Shown: positions 1 through 15,722, counted from the first letter of the stretch. The stretch: DNA of 20,382 nt from an uncultured Verrucomicrobiota bacterium (GCA_964558455.1 CAZLEE010000067.1:1-20382); one strand, 5' to 3'. Notes: generated from the letters alone by a model not told the origin. Numbers and translations: made by a program.

Positions 1-180
1 GCCGATACGCGTCGGCGTCGGCAAAATGTTGCGCTCCATCCAACTCAATGACCACGCCGGTTTCAGCGCTTAAAAAATCCACCTCCATTTTGCCATGTCC
101 ATCGAATGAAATCGGCAATTCCACATTCAGGCGAAAACGACCGGACGTTGCGGGCAGGCTTTGCAGACGACGAAAAAGAA
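1..180 (-). other. DUF559 / Vsr-like endonuclease-fold domain (C-terminal domain of the helicase fusion, truncated by the window edge)
   Basis: Hand translation gives ...LQSLPATSGRFRLNVELPISFDGHGKMEVDFLSAETGVVIELDGAQHFADADAYR. This is the characteristic DUF559 core (VDF...IELDG..H). It continues beyond position 1. Confidence 0.7.
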
Positions 181-2755
181 AGGCTTCGCTGGCGCTCCGG
201 GCACGATCTTCTCCCTTGGCGTTGACATCGGGCGTCCGGGCCGCATGCACGAACAAATTCGCCAGCGGAACATCCACTCCGTCGCGAATGAGCCGGCGAA
301 CGCTGGCGGCGTAATCCTTTTTCCATTCCGGGTCTATCGGAAGCGGAACCTCAGCCGGCCAGCCCGGCAGAGCACTGCCTGGCAGCAGGATGGTGTAGCC
401 AAGTGATTCGTATCCACGGCACCGTCTGTCGAACATTCTGGAAAGCATCGGAACGTTCAGGTCGGCGTAGTCATAGACCCGCACTTCGCGTTTGCCTTCA
501 TGCAGACGATGGAGCCGCCCGACGTACTGCGCAATGGTTCCCCGCCATGAAACCGGCAGGGCCAAAAACAAGGTGTCCAAGCGCGGGTCGTCGAAGCCTT
601 CTCCGATGTATTTTCCCGTGGCCAGAATCACCCGCCCCACACTCCCGGGAATCCGGGCCAATTGCGCAAGGGCGGCGGCTAACACCTTTTTGCCCTGACC
701 TCCTTGCAACAGAATCAAACGCGGGATTTCCGGGGACAGTAGTTGAGCCAAACGTTGCAGGTGTTCTATTCGTTCGGTCAGCACCAAGGGCGACCGCCCC
801 TGGTTGATGGTGCTTACGACGTCTGCGCAAATCATTTGATTGCGCTTGTCGTCATTCCACAAGGCCTCATATAGCTGTTGAAATTCCGCGCGCGGATCAG
901 GCTCGGACACCACTGCCGCGCGAAAACTGGTCGGGCGGACCATGACATGATGCGTGAAAGGCCGCGCCGCCGCCTGGACCTTCGCGTTCACACGATGCCG
1001 AACCGGGCCGCACTGCATGAAAATAATCGGATGGTGCCCGTCCTTGCGGGCCACTGTGGCGGACAAGCCGGTGATGAACTTCGCTTTGGCGCGACGGACG
1101 GCCAATTCAAAGCTGCGCGCTGAAATATGGTGGCATTCATCCACAATCAAATGTCCGTAATCGGCCACGCAATCATCCACCACTTCTTTGCGAACAAGGC
1201 TCTGGATTAATGCCACATCCAATACGCCCGTCAACTTGTTGCGTCCGCCCCCCAATCGCCCGATGCTCTTGGCTGGCAGACCCAGAAACGAGGATAAGCG
1301 GTCAATCCACTGTTCGAGGAGTTGCTGGCGGTGAACTAATACTAATGTGTTGACGCCGCGTTGAGCAATGAGCCAAGCCGCAACCACTGTTTTGCCAAAA
1401 GCCGTGGTCGCAGCCAGAACGCCCGTGTCATGCCCGAGCAACGCCTCAGCCGCTGCTTGCTGCTCAGGCCGCAATGTGCCACAGAAAGAAACGTTCAATG
1501 GAATGCCTCCGTTGCGTTCATCACGTAGAACCGGTTGAATGTGGAGAGACTCAAGCGCCGACTGAACTTCATCCAAACACCCTCGTGGCAGAGCGAAATG
1601 CTTTGGGTGATCCTCAGCGCAAGAAATGATTCTTGGCTTGTTGTAGGTCGGCAGGCGCATGGCTTGCGCGCGATAGAACTCGGGGTTTTGAAACGCGGCC
1701 AAACGCAGCAATCGGTTGCGCAGCCCCGGCGCAAGGTTTTCTTTGGCGATATAGATTTGGTCTCCGAGAATTACCTCGATCTTGTCCGGAAGAGGACCGG
1801 GGATGGGGGGGTCCTTTCGGTGACGTGATGGGGGCGCCGTCCAAGGATTGTCATCATCCTCGTCCGCCATGGCCATGCGCACTCCAATAACCCGTCCTTT
1901 GGAATCCGCGTCACGCACCAAAGCCTCGGCTCGCGCACGGCTCATTCGCCGCACTGAGGCCAGGAAAGCCCATTGATCGGCGTATGGCCCGAACTGTTCG
2001 TCGAGGAAAAGAGTGTTGCCGCGCTGCCTTGCCTGTTTTTGCAGGGGAAGCGCGATCAGATTTCCAAACCCGCCTTTGGGCAGCGTGTCCTGGTTGGGAA
2101 ACAGCCGGTCATAGGAATTAAGGCCAATTTCGGGCCGGTGCTCCATCGTCTCAGTGAGAATGTGCGAACCAAGTTTGCGCGCCAGACTGGCGGAAATAGC
2201 CTCTTCAAAGAAAAACCACACATGGCCGCCGTTGCCGGATCGCGAGCGTTCCAAGACGGCGGGCACGTCCAGCCGTCGGCACATTTCGAGAAACGCGGCC
2301 GCATCCCGCTGCCAATCTTCGCCGTCGAAGTCCACTGCCAGAAAGAAACAAGTCTCGTCCTGCAACATGGCATAGACACCCATGACAAAATTGAGGCCGC
2401 GAGCGTCCCGGCCCGAAAGATGCCAGCCGGTCACTTCGTCAGTGATCTGAAGAAACCGGCGATTGGGACAATCGGCGCATTTGATTCGCGGTTTTTCACA
2501 GACATCCCGAACCCATTCATTGGCGCAGGCGGGCGAATAGCCGGATTTTCCGGTCTTCCGGCTCTCGAAACGGCGGGGATAGACATCCTCTCTGCCCCGG
2601 AAAAGTGATCGAAACAACTTTATCTTGGCAACTGGCGGAGAAAGGTTCGTGATCGCGGTATTTTGAGGTTTTGAAACATCGGCTTCCTGAGTCAGGAACC
2701 GCGCCTCGCTGCCGCTGATTTGGCCGATCGTTTCCACGCGGCAATTATAAGACAC
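1..2755 (-). CDS. Large multidomain protein, 3' end (C-terminus) runs off the left edge of the window. Domains in N-to-C order are a Cys4 zinc ribbon, an AEP-like (LigD-Pol/PrimPol-type) primase-polymerase domain, an SF2 DEAH-box helicase core and a DUF559 (Vsr-like PD-(D/E)xK endonuclease) domain. The start codon is uncertain: in-frame GTG at 2755 and 2737, TTG at 2617.
   Basis: I translated the minus strand by hand. The reading frame whose codon low coordinates are 2 mod 3 is open from position 1 to a double stop (TGATGA) at 2789-2794. It is absent from the ORF track only because it lacks a stop inside the window. Zinc ribbon: CANEWVRDVCEKPRIKCADC at about 2468-2527. AEP motif I: FLAVDFDGEDW, with DxD at 2324-2332. 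AEP motif II, about 30 aa later: RSRSGNGGHVWFFF, with SGxGxH at 2222-2239. A downstream stretch SYDRLFPNQD...GFGNLIALPL resembles AEP motif III and the following strand. Helicase motif I: GVLAATTAFGKTV, with GKT at 1388-1396. Motif II: LIVDECHH at about 1127-1141. Motif III: GLSATV. Motif VI: QYVGRLHR at 506-529. The C-terminus reads FRLNVELPISFDGHGKMEVDFLSAETGVVIELDGAQHFADADAYR at 1-180, which matches the DUF559 consensus (fRRQ..i..y.vDF......IElDG..H). The first roughly 50 codons after the stop are low complexity, so the true start is probably internal. Confidence 0.8.
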   Translation of the reverse strand, partial: MSYNCRVETIGQISGSEARFLTQEADVSKPQNTAITNLSPPVAKIKLFRSLFRGREDVYPRRFESRKTGKSGYSPACANEWVRDVCEKPRIKCADCPNRRFLQITDEVTGWHLSGRDARGLNFVMGVYAMLQDETCFFLAVDFDGEDWQRDAAAFLEMCRRLDVPAVLERSRSGNGGHVWFFFEEAISASLARKLGSHILTETMEHRPEIGLNSYDRLFPNQDTLPKGGFGNLIALPLQKQARQRGNTLFLDEQFGPYADQWAFLASVRRMSRARAEALVRDADSKGRVIGVRMAMADEDDDNPWTAPPSRHRKDPPIPGPLPDKIEVILGDQIYIAKENLAPGLRNRLLRLAAFQNPEFYRAQAMRLPTYNKPRIISCAEDHPKHFALPRGCLDEVQSALESLHIQPVLRDERNGGIPLNVSFCGTLRPEQQAAAEALLGHDTGVLAATTAFGKTVVAAWLIAQRGVNTLVLVHRQQLLEQWIDRLSSFLGLPAKSIGRLGGGRNKLTGVLDVALIQSLVRKEVVDDCVADYGHLIVDECHHISARSFELAVRRAKAKFITGLSATVARKDGHHPIIFMQCGPVRHRVNAKVQAAARPFTHHVMVRPTSFRAAVVSEPDPRAEFQQLYEALWNDDKRNQMICADVVSTINQGRSPLVLTERIEHLQRLAQLLSPEIPRLILLQGGQGKKVLAAALAQLARIPGSVGRVILATGKYIGEGFDDPRLDTLFLALPVSWRGTIAQYVGRLHRLHEGKREVRVYDYADLNVPMLSRMFDRRCRGYESLGYTILLPGSALPGWPAEVPLPIDPEWKKDYAASVRRLIRDGVDVPLANLFVHAARTPDVNAKGEDRARSASEAFLFRRLQSLPATSGRFRLNVELPISFDGHGKMEVDFLSAETGVVIELDGAQHFADADAYR
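506..1490 (-). other. SF2 (DEAH-type) helicase core of the fusion protein
   Basis: Motifs occur in the correct order and with correct spacing. They are a Q-like LRPEQ, Walker A AFGKT, Walker B DECHH, SAT, VILATGKYIGEGFD (motif V-like) and QYVGRLHR (motif VI). Confidence 0.8.
2042..2340 (-). other. AEP (archaeo-eukaryotic primase superfamily; LigD-Pol/PrimPol-like) catalytic domain. Tentative.
   Basis: The motif I to motif II spacing is hhhDhD (LAVDFD) followed about 30 aa later by SGxGxHhhh (SGNGGHVWF). This order and spacing is typical of AEPs, and a motif III-like DRLFPNQD...NLIALPL follows. There is no YxDD and no GS...DxD order, so a reverse transcriptase or Pol-beta nucleotidyltransferase fold is unlikely. 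The call rests on motifs read from the sequence only. Confidence 0.5.
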
Positions 2756-2917: not shown

Positions 2918-5662
2918 ATGCAGAACAAAGTGAAATCGGCGCCCGCCGTGCCGTCGCACCATAATTGGCGCACCACCGATGAGGACGAAATCAACCGCCG
3001 CCGGGAGCGCGCACTGAACGAGGATTTCAAAATCACCAACGCCACTCCCGCCCATCCCATTTTCTCCAACTTCCAGGTCAAGTCGGGCAGCGGTCTGACT
3101 TATTCGGTCGAGGTGCGCGATTTGGGCCAGCGCCAGTTTGCCTGCCAATGCGTTGATTTTCGCATCAATGGCTTGGGCACTTGCAAACACGTCGAGGCGG
3201 TCCTGCTTTACTTGCAGGCGCGTTATGCAAGGGCCTTTCGGGCCGCCGGCCAAAAAGGTTCCACTCGCATCGAGGTGCTGCCGGACCCGTTGCACGACAC
3301 CTTGCGTCTGGTCAACGGCCATGGCCCGTTGCCCCCGACTTTGCGCGAATGGTTCAACGACGATGGACAATTGATCGAATCCGCGCCCGAAACCGCGGCG
3401 GAAGCGTTGCGGCGGCTGGCGGCCAGCCAACTGCCCCAACTGCGCGTCTCGCAGGAGTTGGACCCGTGGCTGCAAGCGCGCGGCCAGGCCGCCGAGCGCA
3501 AAGAGTTGCGCCGCCAGTACGAACTCAAAGTGCAGAGCGGCCAATGGCCGGCGCACGAAACCAAAATGCCGCTCTTTCCGTATCAGCGCGAAGGGATGCT
3601 TCACCTGGCCTTTACGGAGCGGGCCTTGCTGGCCGACGAAATGGGCCTGGGTAAAACCATTCAGGCCATTGCCGCCTGCGCTTTGCTCCACCGGATGGGG
3701 AAAGCCCGCCATGTGCTCGTTGTCACACCGGCCTCGCTCAAGAGCGAATGGGAGGAACAAATCCAGCGTTTCACGGCGCTGCCGTACCAACTGGTTTTTG
3801 GCGCCCGCACGCGACGATTGGCCGCTTACGCCAGCGCCCCGTTCTTTACCATCGTCAATTACGAACAAATGCTGGCCGACTCGCTGGACGTGAACACCCG
3901 CCTGCGGCCGGACATCGTGGTGCTGGACGAAGCGCAACGCATCAAAAACTGGAGCGCCAAAACCACCCAGGCGATCAAGCGCCTGCGCAGCCGTTATGCT
4001 TTTATTCTCACCGGCACCCCGATTGAAAACCGTCTTGATGAATTATATTCGCTGATGGATTTCCTGAACCCGTCGCTGCTCGGCCCGCTCTTTCGCTTCA
4101 ACCGCGAGTATTATGAATTGGACGACCGGGGACGGCCCACAGCCTATCGCAACCTCGACAAACTGCGCCAACGCGTCAAGCCCCTCATCCTCCGCCGCCG
4201 CAAAGCGGATGTTGAGACCGAGTTGCCCGAACGCACCGACCGCAACCACTTCGTCCCACTCAGCACGGAACAGCAGGGCGAGTATGACGACCATGAAGCG
4301 GTCGTCGCCAGATTGGCTTCCATCGCCGCGCGCCGTCCCCTGGCCCAACCGGAACAGGACAAGCTGATGCGCCATCTGAACATGATGCGCATGGTTTGCA
4401 ACACCGATTACATCCTGAACCCCGAACACCGCGCCTGCCCCAAAATCAAGGAGCTGGAAAAAATCCTTGAGGAATGCCGCGACAACCAGGACGTCAAGGT
4501 GATCATTTTCTCGGAATGGACGCGGATGCTGGAACTGGCGCGGGATTTGTGTCAGCGGCTCGGACTGGGCTTTGCCTGGCACACAGGCGCCGTCCCGCAA
4601 AAGCGGCGGCGGGCCGAGATCAATCTTTTTAAATCAGACCCGCACTGCCGCGTATTCCTCAGCACCGATTCCGGCGCGGCGGGCCTGAACCTGCAAAACG
4701 CCAGCGTCGTCGTCAACTGCGACCTGCCCTGGAATCCGGCCAAGCTGGAGCAACGCATCGCGCGCGCCTGGCGCAAAAACCAGACCCGCCCCGTCACCGT
4801 CATCAACCTCATTTCTGAAAAAACCATCGAGCACCGCATGCTCGAAACCCTCTCCAACAAGCAGGCATTGTCCGACGGCGTGCTGGACTTCAAAGGAAAG
4901 CTTGCCGAAATCAAACTGCGCAGCGGACGACAGGCTTTCCTGTCCAAGCTTCAGCAATTGATCACCCCGGCGGCGGGGAACCCCGCTGCCGCAATTCCCA
5001 AGCCGCCGCTTCCCGCCGATCGTCCGCTTGGTTTTGCCCAAGCCGCCCATCAGCGGGTCAACGGCGCGTTGTGCCGCTGCGAAGAACGTTACCCGCTGGA
5101 AGGCCCCCATTCGGTGCTCTACGTGGTGGTGGAACGCGACGCCGCGCAATGGCGCGAAAACCTTAATGCCTTGCACCAGGATTACTTTGGCCCCGGGCAA
5201 TCAGACCCTTTGGCGCCGGTACGCCTGGAAGTTGTTGACCGTGCGACGGATGAAGCCTTGCATCGGTTGATTGAGGCGGGACTGGTGGCCCGGACCACCC
5301 GCGCCACCCGTGCGCTCTGGCCATTGGAGGCTGGTCCGGGATCGCCCGCCCCTCTCTCTGACGTGGAACGAGAGAAAGCCGCCGCCCATCGCCAGCGAGC
5401 GGCGCGCAAATTAAAAATGGCCGCGGTCCTGGCCGGTGGAGGCTTGCCCGAGGAAGCCCGCACCGCGCTGCTGGACGCCCTGCTTCCCTTGGGATGCGCC
5501 TTGGCCGTTGAAAACCGCCTGCCGGAACCCGCCTCGTTGCAGGACGCGTTCCTGCCTCCATTGGGCCTGGTTTGGAAGGACGCGTTGTCAATACTGCGGA
5601 GTTTTGTGCAAGACGACTCCCAACCCGTCGCGGCGGCCGCAGCGGCGCTCGAAAGGATTTGA
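2918..5662 (+). CDS. SNF2/RAD54-family DNA-dependent ATPase (helicase-like) with an N-terminal SWIM zinc finger and a C-terminal extension of about 250 aa of unknown function
   Basis: The ORF is 914 aa. The SWIM finger CQCVDFRINGLGTCKHVEAV (CxC...CxH) lies at about 3141-3200. The SNF2_N motifs are LFPYQREGMLHLAFTERALLADEMGLGKTIQAIA (motif I), VVLDEAQRIKNWSAKT (DEAQ box) and FILTGTPIENRL. The helicase-C motifs are KVIIFSEWTRMLE, STDSGAAGLNLQNASVVVNCDLPWNP and QRIARAWRKNQ (motif VI). The first ATG follows an in-frame TGA at 2912-2914. Confidence 0.9.
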   Translation: MQNKVKSAPAVPSHHNWRTTDEDEINRRRERALNEDFKITNATPAHPIFSNFQVKSGSGLTYSVEVRDLGQRQFACQCVDFRINGLGTCKHVEAVLLYLQARYARAFRAAGQKGSTRIEVLPDPLHDTLRLVNGHGPLPPTLREWFNDDGQLIESAPETAAEALRRLAASQLPQLRVSQELDPWLQARGQAAERKELRRQYELKVQSGQWPAHETKMPLFPYQREGMLHLAFTERALLADEMGLGKTIQAIAACALLHRMGKARHVLVVTPASLKSEWEEQIQRFTALPYQLVFGARTRRLAAYASAPFFTIVNYEQMLADSLDVNTRLRPDIVVLDEAQRIKNWSAKTTQAIKRLRSRYAFILTGTPIENRLDELYSLMDFLNPSLLGPLFRFNREYYELDDRGRPTAYRNLDKLRQRVKPLILRRRKADVETELPERTDRNHFVPLSTEQQGEYDDHEAVVARLASIAARRPLAQPEQDKLMRHLNMMRMVCNTDYILNPEHRACPKIKELEKILEECRDNQDVKVIIFSEWTRMLELARDLCQRLGLGFAWHTGAVPQKRRRAEINLFKSDPHCRVFLSTDSGAAGLNLQNASVVVNCDLPWNPAKLEQRIARAWRKNQTRPVTVINLISEKTIEHRMLETLSNKQALSDGVLDFKGKLAEIKLRSGRQAFLSKLQQLITPAAGNPAAAIPKPPLPADRPLGFAQAAHQRVNGALCRCEERYPLEGPHSVLYVVVERDAAQWRENLNALHQDYFGPGQSDPLAPVRLEVVDRATDEALHRLIEAGLVARTTRATRALWPLEAGPGSPAPLSDVEREKAAAHRQRAARKLKMAAVLAGGGLPEEARTALLDALLPLGCALAVENRLPEPASLQDAFLPPLGLVWKDALSILRSFVQDDSQPVAAAAAALERI

Positions 5663-6440
5663 TTAAAATGGTCGGGGCGGTGAGGTCAGGGTTGCGATCT
5701 GGTCGAACGGCGAAAGGCGCGCATTTGGACCAGGGCCGTTTTGAAAAAAGGTTCGCCGAAAAGCTCGTGCCCGGTGCTCTTGGGGGTTTTGGGGGCGAAG
5801 TGATCGTGCCTCAACCAGCCGTCCACCAGCGCGGAGGAAATCCGCCCGCGCGCGGCCCATCGGCCATGTCAATCAAAACGTTGCCCGGGCCGGTGTCAAA
5901 GGCCAGCACGCGCGGCTGGCCGCCTTTGCGCCAATCGAGGGATGTGACGTTGCTGATGCCGCCCAGATTATTGACGCAGACGTGGGTGCCGCGCCGGGCA
6001 AAAACAAATTGGTGAAACAACGTCGCCAGCGGAGCGCCCTGCCCGCCCGCCGCCATGTCGGCTGCGCGAAAATTGCTGACCACCGGCGCGCGCAACGCCT
6101 CCACCAGATAGGCGGGTTCGCCCAGTTGCAACGTGGCCGGCGCATCCGGCGACGGATTATGGAAAACCGTCTGACCGTGCAACCCGGCATAATCCGGGCG
6201 CGCGATTTTTTTCCCCCTGGGCCGGGCGTGCAAGGCGTAAAAGCGGCCCAAATCATGGTGCAATTGCGCGAGCGGATAGCAGGACAAATCGCCTCGCGCC
6301 GCGGCGTGCAGGGCGGCCCGGAGCGGTTTGGGAAAGTCGGCGGACCAGAGATGAAGCAACCGGATGGCTTTGCCGTCGATTGAAGGCTGAAGACTAAAAT
6401 AAAACGTGGCGTAATCGGAGAAGGCGTCAGACCAGAGCAC
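5663..6440 (-). pseudogene. anmK: anmK (anhydro-N-acetylmuramic acid kinase) remnant. It is truncated at the 3' end, frameshifted, and has a degenerate N-terminal phosphate-binding loop.
   Basis: ORF 5811..6440 (GTG start) translates with a strong match to the AnmK core: GLHGQTVFHNPS...ATLQLGEPAYLVEALRAPVVSNFRAADMAAGGQGAPL...VCVNNLGGISNVTSL...VLAFDTGPGNVLID. The frame then ends in an unrelated 20 aa. A different frame (5663..5872) carries AnmK-like ...FDQIATLTS and stops at 5663, which is exactly where the convergent SNF2 gene ends. The roughly 100 C-terminal residues of AnmK are absent in every frame. The N-terminal loop reads FSLQPSIDG instead of the canonical GxMSGTSLDG. Confidence 0.7.
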
Positions 6441-6510
6441 GGTTCGTTTGAGGGTTGACTAAGAGTGCGAAAAAGTTATAGGCGCATCATGCCAAGGCAG
6501 TTGCAAGTGC
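6441..6510 (+). repeat. Copy A of a conserved ~70-bp element. It reads GGTTCGTTT...TTGACT-N16-TATAGG...ATGCCAAGGCAGTTGCAAG.
   Basis: It aligns to copy B (8803-8870). The core TTGACTAA(A)GAG.GCG/CGTAAAAAGTTATA is about 90% identical. Flanking GGTTCGTTT and a downstream ATGCC..G..AGTTGC..G are also conserved. The -35 TTGACT is at 6455-6460 and the -10 TATAGG is at 6477-6482 with a 16-bp spacer. Confidence 0.7.
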
Positions 6511-6586
6511 AGTGCATCAGTCCTCACTTTTTAAACCATCCTGTTTACGCCTCCACACGTCCACCGCCACCGCTCCCGCCGCCAGA

Positions 6587-8590
6587 CTAACTCTTGGGTT
6601 TGGCTGGTGCTGCTTCTGTTGCGGCGGGTGCGTTCAGAGATTTGGCAAACATCCCCGTCAATGTCGCCATCAATCCGTTAGCGGCGTTCCCATCGCCATT
6701 TCCACCCGTCACCAGGATGTTGGGCATGAAGGGTACGGTGCCGCGGGAGAGCACGTCGGCCACGTTGACCAAGGCGGTTTGGGCCTGGCCAAGAGCAGAA
6801 ACCTGTTCTTTGTACGCTTTGGCTTTGGCCAATCCGACCGCTTCCACTTCGGCGGCTTTGGCGGCGCCGGTGCGGGAGGTGAAGGTGGCCTCGCCATCGG
6901 CTTCGGCTTTGCGGGCCTTGGCATTGTTTTCCTTGATGGAAATCTCGACTTCCGAGCGCGCCAGCGGGCTTTGCATATCAGCGGTGCCCTTGGCTTTTTC
7001 CATTGCCACGCGGCCCTTCTGGGCTTCCTCCTGTTTTTGGAACGTGGCGATTTGTTGATTGGCAATCTCGCGTTCGGTCAGCACCCTGACCAGGTCTTCC
7101 GGCAAAATGACGTCCTGGATGTAAACGCCGCGCGTTTCAACGTCATATTGGGCCAGTTGAGCTTGAATGTGTTTGAAAGCTTCCTGCTGAACTTCCTGGC
7201 GAGTCTCGATGAATTGGATGGCATGCATGGACCCCAACTTGTCGCGAAAAAGGTTGCCCACGGCGGCCTGAAGCACATCGTCCACAAGGTTCTTCATGGT
7301 TCCCACCATCGAGATGACCTTGGGCGCCTTGGTGTCGGGCACATGGATGAGGACCTGCAAATCAATTTTGAAAACGAATCCTTCGTCGCTCTTGGCGACA
7401 ATGGGCTGGAGGTTTTTGTCCAGGCCATGAGCGCCGGTGACTTCGGCGGCCCAATCCAGCTTGAGGATGGCCGTCGGCACAACCTCTGCCTTGTAGATGC
7501 GCGGATTGATGGCGTACTTGCCGGTACGCAACGGGTCTTCCCAAAGACCGCGATGGCCCGGTTTGACCAACGAACCAAATTTGAAGTTCGGTCCGGAGGT
7601 GTCTTGCGTGACCAGTCCGACGTAGGCTTTGATGGCAGCAGCTTCACCCTGTTTGACCACCAGCATGGGGACGGTTTCCACCCGCACCAGGAATGGGTTC
7701 AGAGTGTAGGCCCCGTAGCGGAGGACATCGTGCTGCAAACCCATTTTCCCGCCGGCATTCAGGAAGGCCTGGAAGTCTTGGTAATTATTGTGAGACGCAT
7801 TTTTATCGCCTAACAGCACTTCGATGAGCTTCTGGTCGTCAGCACCCTCCAGTTCGAGCTTTTCCATGTCTCCAAACCCGCCCAGACGACTGGCAATGTG
7901 ACCGGACTCAAGGGGATCACCTTCGAGCGTCGTGACCACGCCCACCACATCGAGCTTTTCCTCGCTGCCCTGCTGTAATTGCGGTTCGACCCGGAACACA
8001 TCAAGTTGTCTGGGTTCGAGATTGAAGGAGGCGGGCGTCAGCCTTTCATCTCTTCCCTCGAACGCCTGAAGATCGCGAGAAATGGGAAGCCCGAAGACTT
8101 TGTTCTTGGTGATGACCAGGAACGCAACCGGGTGAATGGGCAAAAGACTGCCAGGAGCCAGAACCGGACGTTGAACCCCTTTTTCGCCCTCGTTACTGAT
8201 GAAGCCGGGGAGGTCCGTGAAGTTCCCAAATTCCTTTTTATAGCGGGCGGACTTCGCCCCGGCAGGCAAGGTTTTGCCGACTTGGGCAATCAGGACACCG
8301 ATTTCGTTGGCCGGCACCTGGACCCAGGGAAATTTTTCCACTTTGTATAGGAACCACCATTTGAAACGTACACCCGGCATCAGGAGTTCCGCCTGATAAC
8401 CGGCCTCACCTTGGAACGCAACAGGATTGTCGGTTGGCAGCTTGTGGCCGAACCGCTTCATGACCAGACCGACTTCCGCCGGTCCAACGATGCGAATGGA
8501 CTTCCAGACAGTCAAAAATATCAACACGGCCAGCGCCGTAATTTCCAAGGCCAGGATGGGATGGGCCATCAGAATTGGCATAATGGGCAT
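6587..8590 (-). CDS. Flotillin-family SPFH/band-7 domain membrane protein. ATG start at 8590; the ORF track begins at an upstream in-frame TTG at 8680.
   Basis: The ORF is 667-697 aa. It has an N-terminal hydrophobic hairpin (PILALEITALAVLIFLTVW), an SPFH domain (EVGLVMKRFG...VPANEIGVLIAQVGK...) and a long charged coiled-coil region (QQIATFQKQEEAQKGRVAMEKAKG..., ARKAEADGEA..., AKAKAYKEQVSALGQAQ) typical of flotillin/YqiK-like proteins. The sequence MPIMPILM immediately precedes the membrane hairpin, which makes ATG 8590 the more plausible start. Confidence 0.85.
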   Translation of the reverse strand: MPIMPILMAHPILALEITALAVLIFLTVWKSIRIVGPAEVGLVMKRFGHKLPTDNPVAFQGEAGYQAELLMPGVRFKWWFLYKVEKFPWVQVPANEIGVLIAQVGKTLPAGAKSARYKKEFGNFTDLPGFISNEGEKGVQRPVLAPGSLLPIHPVAFLVITKNKVFGLPISRDLQAFEGRDERLTPASFNLEPRQLDVFRVEPQLQQGSEEKLDVVGVVTTLEGDPLESGHIASRLGGFGDMEKLELEGADDQKLIEVLLGDKNASHNNYQDFQAFLNAGGKMGLQHDVLRYGAYTLNPFLVRVETVPMLVVKQGEAAAIKAYVGLVTQDTSGPNFKFGSLVKPGHRGLWEDPLRTGKYAINPRIYKAEVVPTAILKLDWAAEVTGAHGLDKNLQPIVAKSDEGFVFKIDLQVLIHVPDTKAPKVISMVGTMKNLVDDVLQAAVGNLFRDKLGSMHAIQFIETRQEVQQEAFKHIQAQLAQYDVETRGVYIQDVILPEDLVRVLTEREIANQQIATFQKQEEAQKGRVAMEKAKGTADMQSPLARSEVEISIKENNAKARKAEADGEATFTSRTGAAKAAEVEAVGLAKAKAYKEQVSALGQAQTALVNVADVLSRGTVPFMPNILVTGGNGDGNAANGLMATLTGMFAKSLNAPAATEAAPAKPKS

Positions 8591-8802
8591 AAAAGATTTC
8601 TTTTCTGTTGAGTGGTCTGCATCGTGATCTGTGCGGGATTTTGGGCTGATTTCGGGCTCTTGCAAGCGTTTTTCGCTCAAGAGCTACATACCGCTGGTCG
8701 TTCGCAAAGGCGAGGCGGTCTCGCAGAATACCGGCAGAGCCGTGTTCGTTTATGGTCTTTGCGATGAGCGCAATAGCCCGTCCGAGGGGTCACCCATGGC
8801 AT

Positions 8803-8870
8803 GGTTCGTTTCTGTTGACTAAAGAGCGTAAAAAGTTATAAGCCAACTATGCCGCGAAAGTTGCGGGTCT
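8803..8870 (+). repeat. Copy B of the same ~70-bp element. It reads GGTTCGTTT...TTGACT-N16-TATAAG...ATGCCGCGAAAGTTGCGGG.
   Basis: The -35 TTGACT is at 8815-8820 and the -10 TATAAG is at 8837-8842 with a 16-bp spacer. It is in direct orientation relative to copy A, 2362 bp away. It lies about 400 nt upstream of lysS and 125-280 nt upstream (on the opposite strand) of the flotillin start. Confidence 0.7.
8815..8842 (+). promoter_or_regulatory. Near-consensus sigma70-type promoter (TTGACT-16-TATAAG) oriented towards lysS
   Basis: The hexamers match 6/6 and 5/6 of the TTGACA/TATAAT consensus with near-optimal spacing. A twin promoter in copy A (6455-6482) points antisense into the flotillin gene. 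Confidence 0.45.
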
Positions 8871-9135
8871 GAGCTTCCGTCCGCCATCCGCCCTATCAGA
8901 CCTATTCGTTGTGTTTACCCTATTCTTCCGCCCCTCCCGCGCTGTCCGCCAGATAATACTTTTCGCAAAATATTTTCAAATGTCTTTTTACTATCAAATA
9001 CACTAGTTGTGGTTTTAGTCTAACGAATATTTAAAACCATGAACTCAAACCAAACGCCCCAGCCAGCCATTGTTCCCGGTTTCTGTTTTCTGCTTTCCCA
9101 ATTTCTGCTTTTCCCGCCGCCTTTTCCCATTCCGA

Positions 9136-9175
9136 TTTCAGCGTTTCAGCGTTTCAGGATTTCAGCGTTTCGCCC
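9136..9175. repeat. Tandem octamer repeat (TTTCAGCG) x about 5 in the lysS 5' region
   Basis: The repeat reads cgaTTTCAGCG TTTCAGCG TTTCAGGA TTTCAGCG TTTCGCCC. It is preceded (9078-9132) by phased TTTCTG(C)/TTTTCCC T-tracts. Confidence 0.8.
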
Positions 9176-9251
9176 CCTCCCACCCTTCCGCCTTTCATTT
9201 CGGACGCGGACTTTGTAGCATCGACCTGAATTAAGAGATTGAGAGATTATT

Positions 9252-11132
9252 GTGGCAACGAATCCTTTGATAGAAATACGCAACGGTCGTGTCGGCAAAG
9301 CCGACGCGCTTCGCACCCTTGGCCTTAACCCCTATCCGTCGCGCAGCAAACGCACCCATTACGCCAAAACCATCCTGACCGATTTCGACAAGCTGAATGG
9401 GCAGGTCGTCACCGTGGCGGGCCGCCTGCTCTCATGGCGAAAACAGGGCGCCTTGGCCTTCGCCCATTTGCAGGACCAAACCGGCAAACTCCAATTATTC
9501 CTGCGCAAAAATCTGGTGCAGCCCACCCAGCCCGACACCGCCACCCTCGGCTATGCCAATATAAACCTGCTCGACATCGGCGACATTGTCGAAGCCACCG
9601 GCAAGGTCATTCGCACCGAACGCGGGGAAATTTCCGTCCTGGTTGAAACCCTCCGCATCCTGACCAAGGCCATCCGCCCGCTGCCGAGCCAATGGTCGGG
9701 CTTGAAAGATCGCGAACAGGTTTTGCGCAAACGCTACCTCGATTCCATCCTGGAACCGGAATCATTCGTCCGATTCGGCGTCATCAGCAAAATGGTGGCC
9801 GACATCCGCACCTTCCTGAACGAACGCGGTTTCATGGAGTTTCAAACCCCCATCGTCCAACCCCAATACGGCGGCGGCACGGCCAAACCTTTCAAAACCC
9901 ACGTCAACGCCCTCGGCTCCGAAATGTACCTCGCCATTTCGCACGAGCTTTACCTGAAACGGCTCGTCGTCGCCGGGTTCGACAAGGTCTATACCATCGG
10001 ACGCTACTTCCGCAACGAAGGGATGGACCGCAGCCATCATCCCGAATTCTCCATGGTCGAAACCATGGCGGCCTACGAGAACTACGAATACAACATGAAC
10101 CTGATCGAGGACATGTTCCGCCACATCGCCACCAATGTTTTTGGCCGGACGGAATTTGACGTGCGCGGGCACAAGGTTGATTTTGCCAAACCGTGGCGGC
10201 GCATCAGCATGTGCGACGCGGTGCAGGAAAAAACCGGCATCGATTTCCGAACCTGCCCCTCGGTGGAGGCGGCCAACGCCCATCTCGCCGCCTTGGGCGT
10301 CAAAGAATCACAACCCAGCATCGGCGAGGCCCTGGTCAGCGCCTTTGAAGCCACGGTGGAAAAGGATTTGATCCAGCCGACATTGGTTTTTGGACACCCG
10401 ATTGAAATTTCGCCCCTGGCCAAACCCATGGCTGCGGACCCCCGCTTTGTGGAGCGTTTCGAAATTTTCATCGCCGGCATGGAGTGCGGCGATAATTGGT
10501 CCGAACAAAACGACCCCGTGCGCCTGCTCGAAACGTGGCGCAAATCCTATCACGCCGACGAACGCGACGCGGGAAAATTCCACACCCTGGACTTCGATTT
10601 CCTTGAAGCGCTTGAATACGGCATGCCGCCCACCACCGGTATCGGCCCCGGCATTGAACGCATGGCGATGATCTTCACCGGTCAGGAAAATATTGATGAC
10701 GTCATCTTTTTCCCCATGATGCGCCCCTCCATTTCGCCCTTGAACGCGGCCATTTACGGCGTGCCCGAAAATTCCGCCGCCCCCGTGGACGACCTTGCTC
10801 TTTCCTTTGATGAGTTTGAGGCCCTTTGCGCCGCCGGGTCGCTCAAACCGGCCACCCGCAATCTCCTGGTCAAACCGCACCTGCGCGTCTGGAAAACAAC
10901 CGCCGCCGGCGGCAAATCCGCCGTCTCGGCCCACGCTGAAATCGAGGGCTTCCTGCCCAACGGCGTGTTGCGCGTCGCCGGCTGCAAAATCCAGCCCGCC
11001 GAAATTTCGTCTGAGGACGACCAGAAAAAAATCTCCGATTTCCTGGAAAAATCGTGGGGAACATTCCTCCACAAAAAATTCCCGGACTGCGAATCCATCG
11101 TGTCTCTGGCCACGGTGTTGGGCCAGGGCTGA
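9252..11132 (+). CDS. lysS: Lysyl-tRNA synthetase, class II, with a C-terminal extension of about 130 aa
   Basis: The 626-aa ORF has a GTG start. It carries the anticodon-binding OB fold (VTVAGRLLSWRKQGALAFAHLQDQTGKLQLF), class II motif 2 (YTIGRYFRNEGMDRSHHPEFSMVE) and motif 3 (GMPPTTGIGPGIERMAMIFTGQENIDDVIFFPMMRP). After the canonical end of the enzyme there is a tail with no recognisable motifs. Confidence 0.93.
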   Translation: MATNPLIEIRNGRVGKADALRTLGLNPYPSRSKRTHYAKTILTDFDKLNGQVVTVAGRLLSWRKQGALAFAHLQDQTGKLQLFLRKNLVQPTQPDTATLGYANINLLDIGDIVEATGKVIRTERGEISVLVETLRILTKAIRPLPSQWSGLKDREQVLRKRYLDSILEPESFVRFGVISKMVADIRTFLNERGFMEFQTPIVQPQYGGGTAKPFKTHVNALGSEMYLAISHELYLKRLVVAGFDKVYTIGRYFRNEGMDRSHHPEFSMVETMAAYENYEYNMNLIEDMFRHIATNVFGRTEFDVRGHKVDFAKPWRRISMCDAVQEKTGIDFRTCPSVEAANAHLAALGVKESQPSIGEALVSAFEATVEKDLIQPTLVFGHPIEISPLAKPMAADPRFVERFEIFIAGMECGDNWSEQNDPVRLLETWRKSYHADERDAGKFHTLDFDFLEALEYGMPPTTGIGPGIERMAMIFTGQENIDDVIFFPMMRPSISPLNAAIYGVPENSAAPVDDLALSFDEFEALCAAGSLKPATRNLLVKPHLRVWKTTAAGGKSAVSAHAEIEGFLPNGVLRVAGCKIQPAEISSEDDQKKISDFLEKSWGTFLHKKFPDCESIVSLATVLGQG

Positions 11133-11135
11133 TCT

Positions 11136-11915
11136 TTATTTGGCCCCGATTGCGGCCGGCGGCATCCCCGGCAAGTGCCATGCCTCCCGCAGCCGCGCAT
11201 ATTCGGGTTGGGGCAGTTGCACCAAAATCGGATGAGCCTGCGCGTCCAGCCAGGCCACCACGGTTTCAATGTCGCTTTCGCTCATGGCCGTGCAACCGGT
11301 GGTTCCGTGTTCCGGCCCAAGCCAGATATGCATAAAGACGCACGACCCGCCCCCCGGCACAGGCGGCGACGTATTATGTTCAATCACCACGCCCAGGCGA
11401 TACTGCCCGTTGCTCATTCTCATTTTTTCCGAACTGGTCCAGTCGGGTTTCGGCACGGAAGAGCGTTCCAGGACCCGGTTGTAACTGGCGGATTTTGGGT
11501 CGTCCACACATTCCAGGGTTCCGGTGCATTGGGTGTAGGGCATTTTTAGCGCGCCCATTTTTTCCAAAGGCGCGTAGCCAAAAGTGGCAAGCAATTGGAA
11601 TGCGCCGGCGGGAGACTTGCGGTCGCCTTCCTTCTTTTGCGGCCCCGGTTCGGGCATGGGATGCACCCCGGCGCCCCATCCCATTCCATTCCGGCCCACC
11701 ACAATTTGAATCGACGGTCCGACCGCCTGCCACAAATTGCTGTTCAACTCAAAGCGCTGCAGGCGGCCCCCGACGGCCTGCCAGTCCTTGGTTACAACCA
11801 AAATCATTTGCCGCGGCGGTTGCGGCGTGGTGAAAGCCGGCAGGCCGGTTCCGGCCCCGGCCAGCGGCGCCAGCAACAAGACCGGGCCGGCCAAAGTAAA
11901 AAATCGCATTTTCAT
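11136..11915 (-). CDS. Secreted L,D-transpeptidase-like (YkuD-fold) protein
   Basis: The ORF is 259 aa with an N-terminal signal peptide (MKMRFFTLAGPVLLLAPLAGAG). Its C-terminal region GGGSCVFMHIWLGPEHGTTGCTAMSESDIETVVAWL fits the catalytic signature of L,D-transpeptidases (H...(S/T)xGC). The gene ends 3 nt after the lysS stop on the opposite strand. Confidence 0.6.
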   Translation of the reverse strand: MKMRFFTLAGPVLLLAPLAGAGTGLPAFTTPQPPRQMILVVTKDWQAVGGRLQRFELNSNLWQAVGPSIQIVVGRNGMGWGAGVHPMPEPGPQKKEGDRKSPAGAFQLLATFGYAPLEKMGALKMPYTQCTGTLECVDDPKSASYNRVLERSSVPKPDWTSSEKMRMSNGQYRLGVVIEHNTSPPVPGGGSCVFMHIWLGPEHGTTGCTAMSESDIETVVAWLDAQAHPILVQLPQPEYARLREAWHLPGMPPAAIGAK

Positions 11916-12127
11916 TCTCTTTCAGTTGACGACTGAACCCATTATAACGCAAGCTGTAACACAGGTGAGCAACAAGGATAGAGATTTGTATTATTTGTTC
12001 CCCGGCCAAGGCCGGGGAAAACGGAGGCAGTTTATTCATTTGGCGGTGGCGTTCATCGTGGGACTGGGCGCGGCCGGGGCAATAGCGGCGCTCTGCTACT
12101 GGTACTCCAACAAGGGACCATAAAGCC

Positions 12128-12925
12128 ATGGCCATCCTTACGGTGACCGGCCTGACCGTCCAGCGCGGCGGCTCCGTCATTCTTGATCGTATCCGCTGGC
12201 AGGTCATGTCCGGGGAGCATTGGGCCATTCTGGGCGCGAACGGTTCCGGCAAAACATCCCTCCTCAGCGCGTTGACCGGTTATTTGACTCCGACGGACGG
12301 CGAGGTGGAGTTGTTATCGCATCGCTACGGCGCCGCCGATTGGCGGGAGTTGCGCAAGAGAGTCGGTCTGGTCAGCTCAACCGTCCGGCAAAAGATACCG
12401 GAAGACGAACCGGCGCTCGAGACGGTCATCAGCGGACGCCAGGCCATGATTGGTTTTTGGGGGCGCATAACCGCATCGGATCGAAAACGCGGTCTGGCCA
12501 TTCTCAAGGATATCGGGTGCGCGGACTTGGCGGACCGGCCCTGGCTTTACCTTTCGCAAGGGGAACGACAGCGCCTTCTGATCGGCCGCGCCCTCATGGC
12601 GCGCCCGGCGTTGCTGATCCTGGATGAGCCGTGTTCCGGGCTTGATCCGGTCGCGCGGGAACAATTCCTGCAATTCCTGCAAAACCTGGGGCATTCCCCC
12701 AAACCACCCGCGATGGTGCTGGTCACTCATCATACCGAGGAAATCATCCCCGTCTTCTCGCACGTCTTGGTTCTGCGCCAGGGCCGCGTCCTCGCGGCCG
12801 GGGAACGAAGGAAAACGCTGACCTCCCCCATCCTATCGCGCGCCTTCAACGCCGACATTCGTTTGACAAGGAGAAATGACCGCTACCGGATTGAAATCCG
12901 CCGCAAAAGCAAAAAGCCGATGTGA
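12128..12925 (+). CDS. ABC transporter ATP-binding protein (orphan ATPase with no adjacent permease)
   Basis: The ORF is 265 aa. It has Walker A GANGSGKTS, the ABC signature LSQGERQR, Walker B LLILDEP and an H-loop LVTHH. Confidence 0.9.
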   Translation: MAILTVTGLTVQRGGSVILDRIRWQVMSGEHWAILGANGSGKTSLLSALTGYLTPTDGEVELLSHRYGAADWRELRKRVGLVSSTVRQKIPEDEPALETVISGRQAMIGFWGRITASDRKRGLAILKDIGCADLADRPWLYLSQGERQRLLIGRALMARPALLILDEPCSGLDPVAREQFLQFLQNLGHSPKPPAMVLVTHHTEEIIPVFSHVLVLRQGRVLAAGERRKTLTSPILSRAFNADIRLTRRNDRYRIEIRRKSKKPM

Positions 12926-13159
12926 TCAGTCCCGCCGCGACCAATAATATACCCCGGCCATGATGCCGACGGCCGCGACGCTCATCCAGAAAGCGGACTG
13001 AATCAAAAAAGTAATGGCGATCAGCCCGACGCCTCCGAAAAGCGGCGGACCTGAGCGTTGTTTTTTTCCGTAAATCCAGAATCCGGCCCCCACCGCGCTC
13101 CAAAACATCGAGACAAAGAGGTAGCTCGTGTCGAGTTTGAATGGAAAAATGTTCTCCAT
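12926..13159 (-). CDS. Small two-helix membrane protein of unknown function
   Basis: The 77-aa ORF has an ATG start. It contains two hydrophobic segments (YLFVSMFWSAVGAGFWIY and GGVGLIAITFLIQSAFWMSVAAVGIMAGVYYW). It begins immediately downstream of fbaB on the same strand, so co-transcription is possible. Confidence 0.5.
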   Translation of the reverse strand: MENIFPFKLDTSYLFVSMFWSAVGAGFWIYGKKQRSGPPLFGGVGLIAITFLIQSAFWMSVAAVGIMAGVYYWSRRD

Positions 13160-13278
13160 AGCCGGATCAACACCATGAAAAAGCCGCGTCCAGGTTGATC
13201 AAATCAACCCGTCCCGCGGCAGGCAAAGGCCTGGAACCCATCCCCGGTTCAGGAGACGGGTTCCATGAGCTTGAAAGT

Positions 13279-14196
13279 TTATTTCCCGTAGATGGAAATG
13301 ATCTTGCCGAGAAACTTGACGGCATCATCGTGTTTCCGTTGGAAAGAATTCCGGCCCATGATGGACCCAAACCCGCCGCCGTCGTGAATGGCGGTCACCT
13401 CTTGGAACACCGCTTCATCGCTGTTGGTCGCGCCGCCCGAGAAAATGACAATGCGGCGGCCATTGAAGGCGCATTGCACAACGTGGCGGACGCGTTCGGT
13501 GAGGCTGGAAATCGGGATTTTTTCCTTCTCATACACCTTCTTGGCCGCTTCCTGTTCCAAATCGGACGTGGGAAGTTTGACCTTGATGATGTGCGCGCCC
13601 AACTCGGCGGCAATGTGTGCGGCATAACCGGCCACATCCATGGCGGTCTCGCCTTTCTTGCTCAGGGTGGAACCGCGCGGATAAGACCACACGACCACGA
13701 CCAGGCCGTTTTTCTTGGCCTCGGCGGCGGCGGTGCGCAGTTGCTCATACATCCTCACGCGCTCACACGAGCCGGGATAAATGGTGAACCCGATCGCGGC
13801 GCAACCCAGACGCACCGCGTCGGCAACGCTGCTGGTCAGCGCGGGCAGGGGATCCTTCTCGTCATAGAGCAGGTCGTGATTGTTGATCTTGAGAATCAAT
13901 GGAACCTCGCCGGCAAACTCGCGCGCGCCCGCCTCAATGAATCCGAGAGGCGCGGCAAAGGCGTTGCACCCGGCATCCATGGCCAGTTGAAAATGGTAGC
14001 GCGGGTCGTAGCCCGGAGGATTAACCGCAAAACTGCGCGCCGGTCCGTGTTCGAATCCTTGGTCCACGGGAAGAATAACCAATCGGCCCGTGCCGGCGAG
14101 TGCGCCGTGATTGAGCAAACGGGCCAGGTTGGTCAACGTTCCGGGATTATCGCTGCCGTACCAACTCAGTATCTCTTTTACTTTTGGAGTATTCAT
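13279..14196 (-). CDS. fbaB: Class I fructose-bisphosphate aldolase (FbaB/DhnA type)
   Basis: The 305-aa ORF closely matches the E. coli FbaB core: LAGTGRLVILPVDQGFEHGPARSFAVNP, AMDAGCNAFAA, LILKINNH, AAIGFTIY and VVVWSYPRG. The ATG at 14196 was confirmed. Confidence 0.9.
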   Translation of the reverse strand: MNTPKVKEILSWYGSDNPGTLTNLARLLNHGALAGTGRLVILPVDQGFEHGPARSFAVNPPGYDPRYHFQLAMDAGCNAFAAPLGFIEAGAREFAGEVPLILKINNHDLLYDEKDPLPALTSSVADAVRLGCAAIGFTIYPGSCERVRMYEQLRTAAAEAKKNGLVVVVWSYPRGSTLSKKGETAMDVAGYAAHIAAELGAHIIKVKLPTSDLEQEAAKKVYEKEKIPISSLTERVRHVVQCAFNGRRIVIFSGGATNSDEAVFQEVTAIHDGGGFGSIMGRNSFQRKHDDAVKFLGKIISIYGK

Positions 14197-14244
14197 TTTC
14201 TGTTTTTACTTTCTGCTTGGGGTTTAAAAACGCCCCTGGCCAGG

Positions 14245-15477
14245 TCAGGCTTCAGCCTGATTGGTCACCGGCTTCCACTCATGGACAGCAAGGGCCGCCG
14301 CACCCAGTGCGCCGCTGAATTCGCCAATATCCGACACCACCAACGCGGGCAATTCCTGGCCGCGTGAAAATTTCTGGAAGTTTTCCTCCACCAAACCCAG
14401 AAAGGCGGAGCCAAAAGCCGGAAATACGCCCGCCAATATGATCTTGCTGGGATTGAAAGCCCGGTTCAACTGGCTGGAAACCAATCCGAGGGTCGCCGCC
14501 ACGCGATTCAACAGGGCCAAAATCAGTTCATCCTTTTCATGCGCCGCCTGAAGAAGGCGGGTCAGGCTGAAGTTGGCCGCCAGTTCGGCATGCATCGCGT
14601 TGGTTCCGCTGGCGGCAAGAAACGACTGCATGCCGTGCAGGGAGGCGATCTCTTCCAACGTGGGCAGGCCCGGCCCGTCGCCGTCGAGGTGACCGAGGGC
14701 GCATGGCCAGTCGCCAATTTCACCGGCGAGGTTGTGGCTGCCATGATAGACTTGCCCGTCAATCATAACGCCCGCGCCAATGCCGCTGCGCATGCCCAGA
14801 CAGATAAAATTCTTCAAGCCCCGCCCCTGACCAAACCACAATTCCGCCAGCGCCATCGAGCGAATGGTGTTCTCCAGAAAAACAGGCACGGAAAATCGCG
14901 CGCTCAACCGTTCCGCCAACGGAATGTTGCTCCAACCCCGGATGTGCTTGTATTGCCTGGCGATGCCGCGAACCGGATCAATCACGCCGGGAACCCCGAC
15001 CCCTATGCTCAACAACCGGCGGTCGTCGCCCTCTTCAACTTCATGAATGGCGCGCTCTATTTTTTCCAGGATGTGTTCAACCGTGTCCCCCTGATCGATG
15101 GTGTCGTGAAATCGTTTGAGGGGCTTTTGCGAAAAATCAACCGCTATGGCCATGATGTTGCGCGCCTCAAAATCCACCCCGATGAATCGGCCGCCCTGCG
15201 CGTTCAATCCCAGCGCCGTGGGGGGCCGGCCAAAGTCCCGTCCCACCCGCTTGCCCTCGGATAGAAAACCTTCCTCTATCAAGTGATCAACGTAGATGCC
15301 GACGGTCGAAGGGGCGAGATTCAAACTGCGGGCCAGCTCAATGCGCGACAGCCCGTCCTGCGCCCGAACCCGCCTTAGCAAGTCCCCTTCGATATTGGCG
15401 ATGGTTTCGTGTTTGATTTTGAACCGTTGCGGACTGGTCCGTTTAGTGCGGCAAATCTGTATGTTCTTGTCTGCCAT
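14245..15477 (-). CDS. ROK-family transcriptional regulator (NagC/XylR-like: N-terminal HTH plus ROK sugar-kinase-like domain)
   Basis: The ORF is 410 aa. The N-terminal HTH is LSRIELARSLNLAPSTVGIYVDHLIEEGFL. The ROK domain shows FIGVDFEARNIMAIAVD and LSIGVGVPGVIDPVRG, and a Cys/His region is present in the second half. Confidence 0.85.
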   Translation of the reverse strand: MADKNIQICRTKRTSPQRFKIKHETIANIEGDLLRRVRAQDGLSRIELARSLNLAPSTVGIYVDHLIEEGFLSEGKRVGRDFGRPPTALGLNAQGGRFIGVDFEARNIMAIAVDFSQKPLKRFHDTIDQGDTVEHILEKIERAIHEVEEGDDRRLLSIGVGVPGVIDPVRGIARQYKHIRGWSNIPLAERLSARFSVPVFLENTIRSMALAELWFGQGRGLKNFICLGMRSGIGAGVMIDGQVYHGSHNLAGEIGDWPCALGHLDGDGPGLPTLEEIASLHGMQSFLAASGTNAMHAELAANFSLTRLLQAAHEKDELILALLNRVAATLGLVSSQLNRAFNPSKIILAGVFPAFGSAFLGLVEENFQKFSRGQELPALVVSDIGEFSGALGAAALAVHEWKPVTNQAEA

Positions 15478-15722
15478 GTGATTACAAAAAATTCGCCATT
15501 AGGGTATTTAATCCGCGGCGATTGTGCGAGAAAAAAGTCGAAATAATTGCGTCCCGGGTGTGTTTCTGTGATTGCAAAATATCTTCCAATGAGCCGGCTA
15601 TCCCGGCCCCAACCGGGCCGGGCGCGGCCAAAACAGAAAAAAGTGGGAAGTGCGCCTGACGCGCGCAGGGGCCTTTTCTCTTGCGCTCCTTGCGGCGCCA
15701 GTTACAAAGGGGCGGCTGATTA

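Follow-up and report, generated by a model that had tools for sequence, protein, structure and literature searches.

It is textbook knowledge that the junctions of genomic islands carry pseudogene remnants and tRNA tails, and an orphan repeat of the 3′ part of a tRNA that starts at the anticodon loop is the classical attachment (att) signature of an integrase-type island. Here we describe a locus in a Verrucomicrobiota metagenome contig in which a fragment of anmK, the gene for anhydro-N-acetylmuramic acid kinase (AnmK; PF03702, NCBIfam PRK09585 family), lies beside a pair of helicase genes; the whole stretch of DNA analyzed, 20,382 nucleotides long, is called the window. The fragment resembles the AnmK family in that its central 174 residues are 98.9% identical to those of an intact 373-aa AnmK of the same metagenome, and differs from it by lacking codons 1-23 and 273-373 and by carrying 46-nt and 1-nt deletions; it is a pseudogene fragment and not a member of the family in the functional sense. 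As in tRNA-linked islands and prophages, foreign genes abut the 3′ end of tRNA-Pro(GGG), the cargo varies between genomes, and seven related loci combine the intact tRNA with an orphan 30-50-nt copy of its 3′ part. Unlike in such islands, neither an integrase nor a second att repeat was found at the present locus, the tRNA is reduced to 16 nt, and the site is not native to this tRNA. The locus also resembles the outcome of imprecise excision (a capture similar to specialized transduction), since a host gene fragment and a tRNA tail are attached to a mobile module in a non-native context and, in two other contigs (L170 and L176), this module is accompanied by tRNA-Pro fragments that vary in length; it differs in that no phage or integrative-element machinery was identified here, and the mechanism of movement is one that we infer.

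The helicases themselves have likenesses among defense proteins. The SNF2-family product resembles defense-associated SNF2 proteins (ZorD of Zorya, DpdE, and DrmD of DISARM; PADLOC ZorD 1.5e-68, DpdE 8e-65), and its partner resembles the primases of TOTE conflict systems (PF22548; Pfam AEP-TOTE 6.5e-100, PADLOC CRISPR-associated PrimPol 4e-91). In contrast to genuine Zorya, DISARM and Dpd proteins, the NCBIfam equivalog scores all fell far short of their cut-offs (ZorD 179 bits vs. 1500, DrmD 126 vs. 610, DpdE 114 vs. 500), and no Zorya, Dpd or DISARM partner genes were present in the window. A defense role for the helicases is thus a guess from domain content, and we assign them to no system. 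A literature search for the TOTE conflict system gave no papers, and one for anmK pseudogenes gave unrelated genome papers only.

The anmK fragment and its lesions

The window differs by two mismatches in 15.7 kb from a 22-kb contig (L001; JGI 3300041809 contig Ga0455670_0021414), whose positions are converted to window positions by subtracting 1781. The fragment is also carried by a contig of ENA ERZ27249945 (L002) and a contig of JGI 3300014199 (L003). For comparison we used an intact anmK at positions 8308-9429 of a second contig from the metagenome of L001 (L004) and, for tblastn, the closest intact AnmK protein (P0001, 373 aa). The features of the window are as follows.

1-2737, minus strand: AEP-TOTE primase/ResIII-DEAD helicase/DUF559 protein (PF22548, E = 6.5e-100; 961 aa in L001)
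2918-5662, plus strand: SNF2-family helicase, 914 aa (Pfam SNF2-rel_dom 4e-47, Helicase_C 3e-24)
5663-5668, no strand: 6 nt separating the 3′ end of the tRNA from the SNF2 stop codon, read from the sequence; island/att junction
5669-5684, minus strand: last 16 nt of tRNA-Pro(GGG), CTCACCGCCCCGACCA (17/17 match to L004 9571-9587, including the next base)
5685-5719, minus strand: anmK remnant segment 3, anmK nt 781-815, third frame (alignment, tblastn)
5720-5867, minus strand: anmK remnant segment 2, anmK nt 632-779, second frame (Pfam profile positions 225-258)
5867-5868, minus strand: scar of a 46-nt deletion (anmK nt 586-631), first frameshift (alignment; also in L001, L002 and L003)
5868-6381, minus strand: anmK remnant segment 1, anmK nt 72-585 (codons 24-195), in frame with the 209-aa ORF
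5811-6440, minus strand: 209-aa ORF, called AnmK by gene callers (Pfam AnmK profile positions 31-194 of 367, E = 3e-35)
6382-6586, no strand: 205-nt spacer from the 5′ breakpoint of the remnant to the SPFH stop codon, without homology to the native anmK upstream region
6587-8680, minus strand: SPFH/Band-7 protein, 697 aa (Pfam Band_7), the neighbor on the 5′ side of the remnant
9252-11132, plus strand: lysS

Pfam, tblastn and nucleotide alignment bore out the original prediction that the DNA between the SNF2 and SPFH genes holds a truncated, frameshifted remnant of anmK. By blastn and global alignment against the intact gene, window 6381-5685 (minus strand) corresponds to anmK nt 72-815, and three frames are needed to cover AnmK residues 24-272, with no single frame of ~370 aa. 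The tblastn search with P0001 recovered residues 24-197 in one frame at 98.9% identity, in agreement with the close match that had been claimed for the central residues, and a second and a third frame gave residues 208-260 and 261-272, respectively; the central sugar-kinase core is therefore present by both Pfam and tblastn, and Pfam in addition placed AnmK profile positions 225-258 in the second frame at 5686-5826. A frame break had been predicted after GPGNVLIDM; it is indeed there, and its cause is the 46-nt deletion, the interval of which is flanked by ATGGCC in intact anmK. A 1-nt deletion at anmK nt 780 produces the second frameshift, and a small compensated slip is seen near anmK nt 703-717. 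In segment 2 the PKSTGRE motif is damaged to PKSTGHE within a cluster of three non-synonymous changes. Altogether the remnant shows 13 substitutions relative to intact anmK, and it has lost anmK nt 1-71, the 46-nt internal block, single bases and a block of 448 bp. Since L001, L002 and L003 align gaplessly to the window across this region, identical indels are present in four independent assemblies, and the lesions are real rather than assembly noise.

Both ends of the coding sequence are missing. The 5′ end had been read as a degenerate P-loop, FSLQPSIDG, and this turned out to be a chance resemblance: homology begins only at codon 24 (IDGKAIRLL, window 6381), so that the P-loop is missing rather than degenerate. 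The N-terminal phosphate-binding motif GxMSGTSxDG is absent, the first 23 codons with the whole GIMSGTSIDS having gone, and a sensitive local alignment upstream of anmK nt 72 returned noise only. At the other end, the absence of the last ~100 residues with their GGG motif held up, as P0001 residues 273-373 (including LTGGGASNP) gave no tblastn match in any frame in the window or in the longer L001; a C-terminal AnmK portion elsewhere on the contig, which had been named as something to look for, was accordingly not found in either. The first 20 codons of the 209-aa ORF (6382-6440) are non-anmK sequence, its last 17 codons are out-of-frame read-through past the 46-nt deletion, and NCBIfam scores for the remnant were at most 166 bits vs. 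curated cut-offs of at least 352 (166 vs. 387). Window 5685-6381 (minus strand) is a non-functional anmK pseudogene fragment, cut at both ends, and cannot encode a kinase. The possibility that the remnant is nearer to another allele was rejected, given that it matches P0001, not P0247, everywhere except K79R.

A tRNA-Pro tail, its native locus and the helicase module

The AnmK-like sequence had been predicted to resume in another frame and to end exactly at the 3′ end of the SNF2 gene, at 5663. The resumption and the call of a junction at this place both stood, whereas anmK homology stops at 5685, positions 5663-5665 are merely the stop codon of an incidental ORF, and 5663-5684 consist of the tRNA tail and the spacer. 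The tail was detected within the window by blastn-short (E = 3e-4), and the 17-nt stretch is identical to the tRNA at 17/17 positions, compared with 12/17 when the matching part of anmK is used. The tail keeps the strand and order of the native locus and lies at the exact end of anmK homology, 6 nt from the SNF2 stop codon (5660-5662). ARAGORN found no complete tRNA in the window and Rfam found no RNA families at 5000-7000; tRNA-Pro(GGG) is represented here by its last 16 nt, without a complete cloverleaf or anticodon. The tail is a relic of the tRNA gene and attachment site that natively lie 3′ of anmK. Because these last 16 nt still sit between anmK and SNF2, the 3′ end of anmK must have been lost through a separate deletion of 448 bp, and the earlier proposal that an inserted island had replaced this end does not hold. 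The deletion runs from anmK nt 816 to tRNA nt 61 and corresponds to L004 9123-9570, so that the final 307 nt of anmK went together with the spacer and tRNA nt 1-61. The sequence TCACCGCCC is shared by anmK nt 821-829 and the tRNA; the deletion junction (GAC/CTCACC) falls outside this motif.

At the intact locus on L004 the order is anmK, an 80-nt spacer and tRNA-Pro(GGG), all on the same strand, and then an island. This pairing was scanned in fetched loci whose AnmK is ~66-80% identical, with L004 itself outside the scan: tRNA-Pro(GGG) was present ≤300 nt downstream of anmK in 21 loci, at a distance of 53-85 nt in all of them, and in L040 and L092 it was found 573 nt and 2.3 kb downstream, respectively. 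Seven loci contained an orphan 30-50-nt copy of the 3′ part of the tRNA as a direct repeat 0.9-6.8 kb downstream, and the repeats examined in L006, L008 and L010 all begin at the anticodon loop. These arrangements indicate that the 3′ 50 nt of tRNA-Pro(GGG) serve as an island attachment repeat in the closest relatives. Upstream, the native locus is flanked by gap in L004, L006 and L093, with a methyltransferase gene also upstream in L006 and L093; downstream, a gene for a 449-aa protein is shared by L004 and L009, the latter also having an HTH_17 gene. None of these native flanks is present in the window or in L001, and nothing else of L004 matches either. On L004 itself, positions 9741-15606 hold the gene for the 449-aa protein, which neither Pfam nor PADLOC matched, along with an excisionase-like HTH_17 gene and a series of small ORFs; they are probably another integrated element. 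A peat contig (L103) carries at 8919-9869, ~1 kb downstream of anmK-tRNA-Pro and on the same relative strand as the window SNF2, a different SNF2-family gene that is 33% identical to residues 346-661 of the window SNF2, so that the hot spot also receives SNF2 cargo unrelated to that of the window.

The SNF2 and AEP-TOTE helicase genes of the window are divergently arranged, SNF2 being the right-hand gene; the AEP-TOTE gene has its 5′ part ending at 2737 and its 3′ end running off the left edge of the window. SNF2 recurs at 87-94% identity in two other genomic contexts. On a 146-kb contig of a different Verrucomicrobiota MAG (L170; JBEKDI010000002), the same divergent pair lies between DUF5060/DAHP synthase and beta-helix/G6PD genes, with homology of 87.7% over 5.8 kb (L001 1629-7444) that extends exactly from the AEP-helicase stop codon to one base past the SNF2 stop codon. 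The end of this homology at window 5663 supports the earlier view that the SNF2-proximal end marks a boundary of the mobile helicase module. On L170 a 49-nt orphan tRNA-Pro 3′ fragment, oriented as the 16-nt tail of the window, follows 45 nt past the homology end; it has the module on its 3′ side, which under the textbook att layout is the chromosomal side. In the second context (L176), SNF2 occurs alone beside a MatE gene at 90.6% nucleotide identity, and the homologous stretch, which takes in a vestige of the tRNA end, reaches window 5675. A further contig (L091) has an intact anmK-tRNA-Pro pair and, 17 nt further on, an AEP-helicase homolog of which the promoter region and 84 N-terminal codons remain, this 84-aa remnant having 77% amino acid identity. 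Together, these three contexts show a module that is repeatedly tied to the tRNA-Pro 3′ terminus and takes parts of this tRNA along to new surroundings. The module is thus polymorphic in presence and context between genomes (L170 at 87.7%, L176 at 90.6%, with unrelated flanks), and foreign DNA abuts the tRNA 3′ end both here (6 nt) and in L170 (45-nt gap). No integrase domain was found among the genes called on L001 or the window ORFs scanned, and blastn-short with the 50-nt 3′ part of the tRNA found just the 16-nt tail and no second att repeat in L001, which extends only 1.6 kb beyond the module.

Several further features of the helicase genes were recorded. On L170 (10001-12705) SNF2 is called as two ORFs (770 and 131 aa, with a 4-nt overlap) vs. 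the single 914-aa ORF of the window and L176; the split could stem from a sequencing error or from a frameshift, programmed or otherwise. The N-terminus of SNF2 (window 2918-3300) has a CxC...CxH motif (CQCVDFRINGLGTCKH) resembling a SWIM zinc finger, with no SWIM domain found by Pfam at E ≤ 0.01, and the C-terminal 250 residues gave no domain match. L002 and L003, from independent assemblies, begin no more than 10 nt apart, at window ~1972-1981 in the AEP-TOTE helicase gene, which points to a second repeat in these communities, perhaps a further copy of the AEP-helicase gene.

Origin of the fragment

The surroundings of the module bear on how the fragment came to lie here. Left of the module in L001 is ppk1, followed by two N-terminal gene stumps. 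These lie between ppk1 and the AEP-helicase gene at L001 1039-1667 (window -742 to -114), and both read toward the module and are cut short: the first encodes the N-terminal 134 aa of a NAGLU-family glycosidase (PF12971, E = 7e-21), the second the N-terminal 80 aa of an AAA_14 ATPase. With these stumps on the left and the anmK remnant on the right, the helicase module is bordered by gene debris on both sides, and the region is evidently an accumulation of scars. An imperfect 18-nt direct repeat, GCTTTGCCGT(T/C)..., was also observed, 15 of 18 bases being shared between window 6367-6384 and L001 964-981 (GCTTTGCCGTCGATTGAA and GCTTTGCCGTTCAATGAA), 7.2 kb apart. It sits exactly at the 5′ breakpoint of the remnant and upstream of ppk1, and so brackets the debris and the helicase pair; the repeat may mark an insertion, and with a post hoc shuffle test of p ~0.005 it could also have arisen by chance. 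No empty site, with ppk1 adjoining the SPFH gene, was found via the relatives of SPFH or Ppk1. The SPFH orthologs (94% amino acid identity in L086 and L087, 76% in L088) have only coding sequence in common with the window, and the best Ppk1 match (77%, L175) has unrelated neighbors. In L086 and L087 the SPFH homology (window 6591-8584, 85-89% nucleotide identity) lies between entirely different genes; its confinement to coding sequence implies that the 697-aa flotillin-like gene also behaves like a relocating cassette. The SPFH gene is not a native anmK neighbor.

All three of the assemblies that carry the remnant also contain an intact anmK in its native context, at 97.6% nucleotide identity. 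In JGI 3300041809 the intact locus is on L004. In JGI 3300014199 it is 100% identical and split into L141 and L131 at anmK nt 465/469, and the corresponding base is where the remnant contig L003 stops. For ERZ27249945, the native contig (L173) stops at nt 483, and of the remnant contigs one (L002) stops at nt 343 while the other (the contig of L174) starts at nt 483; this pattern is the one expected of a k = 141 fork. The contigs break here because a 243-nt stretch (anmK nt 343-585) is identical in both copies. The remnant and the intact locus are each ~100% conserved between samples. A scan with intact AnmK found no species-level genome with both loci in GTDB, the nearest AnmK being 76% identical, and sister-strain variants of LysS, ROK, GAPDH, AnmK and SNF2 at 94-99% identity are present in these habitats. 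Several GTDB MAG contigs (L034 and L045 of MAG DASTLJ01, SMAG_U2734; L037 and L039) end in anmK at about residue 249-252, and one MAG has AnmK residues 50-249 on each of two contigs; assemblies in this clade may thus often be broken by partial anmK duplicates.

The substitutions that separate the two copies are unevenly distributed. Between anmK nt 72 and 342, where all segment 1 substitutions lie, there are nine differences, eight of them synonymous, and the next 309 aligned nt contain none (Fisher p = 0.001). A further cluster at anmK nt 697-731, the PKSTGRE region, consists of three non-synonymous changes and one synonymous change. The synonymous bias indicates that the two copies acquired most of their differences when both were functional and under selection, so that the source of the remnant was an allele that had diverged slightly and not a recent neutral duplicate. 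The central 309 nt free of substitutions suggest later recombination or gene conversion with the intact copy.

Taken together, window 5669-6381 is probably a decaying piece of the anmK-tRNA-Pro(GGG) attachment region that is still attached to the mobile helicase module. Given that an intact locus is present in every remnant-bearing assembly and that native flanks are missing on both sides of the remnant, we most likely see a second, redundant copy at an ectopic position and not the cell's own anmK broken in place. A block made up of part of anmK, tRNA-Pro and the helicase module would have left the native site of a very close relative, or been duplicated within the genome; illegitimate recombination would then have inserted it between ppk1 and the SPFH gene, where deletions subsequently eroded it. 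The near-identical proteins (97-99%) of sister strains in these habitats and the absence from GTDB of a species-level genome count against an ectopic copy, and the missing empty site, integrase and second att repeat, the possible chance origin of the 18-nt repeat and the side of the tRNA fragment on which the module lies in L170 were counted against it as well. A rival that we consider rather unlikely is decay in situ in a separate strain, the sole anmK-tRNA-Pro locus of which received the helicase island at the tRNA; anmK would then have become dispensable and eroded, a further rearrangement at anmK nt 72, for instance an inversion or translocation, would have swapped the gap flank for SPFH, and the intact locus on L004 would be that of a co-occurring sister strain. 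The order of anmK, tRNA tail and island does match the native order, the mostly synonymous divergence fits orthologs that diverged under selection, and sister-strain variants at 94-99% identity exist. However, both native flanks are missing and nothing else of L004 is present in the window or L001, loss of the upstream flank by deletion would take out gap, and the remnant and intact locus occur together in all three assemblies, each ~100% conserved. That the module carries tRNA-Pro fragments into unrelated contexts (L170, L176) further indicates that such scars travel.

The 243-nt identical stretch raises the question of whether the two loci were joined wrongly, so that the true loci would be two other hybrids: gap, the intact 5′ half of anmK, the deleted 3′ half, the tRNA tail and SNF2 on the one, and SPFH, the 5′-truncated anmK, its intact 3′ half and tRNA-Pro on the other. 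The contigs of JGI 3300014199 and of ERZ27249945 (k-mer 141) break exactly inside this stretch, which makes the repeat a real assembly problem. All assemblies that bridge it (L001, the window contig and L004) nevertheless give the same pairing, and a mispairing would be less parsimonious in that it leaves two half-intact pseudogenes and no functional anmK; we therefore regard it as very improbable. Still harder to credit is a functional truncated product of the 209-aa ORF, such as an AnmK-derived regulatory or sugar-binding domain. Such a product could be argued for from the frame being open for 209 codons, from its annotation as AnmK by gene callers and from the few non-synonymous changes in the 5′ part, but it would be without the N-terminal phosphate-binding motif and the whole C-terminal half of the fold, and its N-terminal 20 and C-terminal 17 residues would be fortuitous non-anmK or out-of-frame read-through. 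The AnmK-homologous sequence moreover runs on in two other frames, which is a signature of decay, and among the best 120 homologs the shorter ones checked were contig-end partials or frameshifted calls and did not represent a short form kept by evolution.

Significance of the locus

The locus is a new and well-resolved instance of a common process, an ordinary scar of island traffic that will not surprise specialists, and only the mode of movement of the module has some potential for novelty. One speculative reading, which we put forward with considerable doubt, is that the SNF2 and AEP-TOTE genes are gene-sized cassettes that move among peat Verrucomicrobiota by a route other than a classical integrase. 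Such cassettes may have boundaries within ≤13 nt of stop codons, without a visible recombinase, and may drag along tRNA-Pro/anmK sequence of differing length (~7 nt in L176, 49 nt in L170, and 16 nt plus 0.7 kb here), moving possibly by means of the primase-polymerase itself. If this were true, the anmK fragment would document the donor site at the molecular level.

For the annotation of these genomes, the 209-aa ORF is wrongly named 'anhydro-N-acetylmuramic acid kinase' in public records, and a metabolic reconstruction from this contig should read muropeptide recycling from the intact copy. The 243-nt repeat is an example of how assemblies of this population fragment. In addition, base-level boundaries were obtained for an AEP-TOTE/SNF2 helicase module that recurs in different contexts, and tRNA-Pro(GGG) beside anmK is identified as an island hot spot in peat Verrucomicrobiota.
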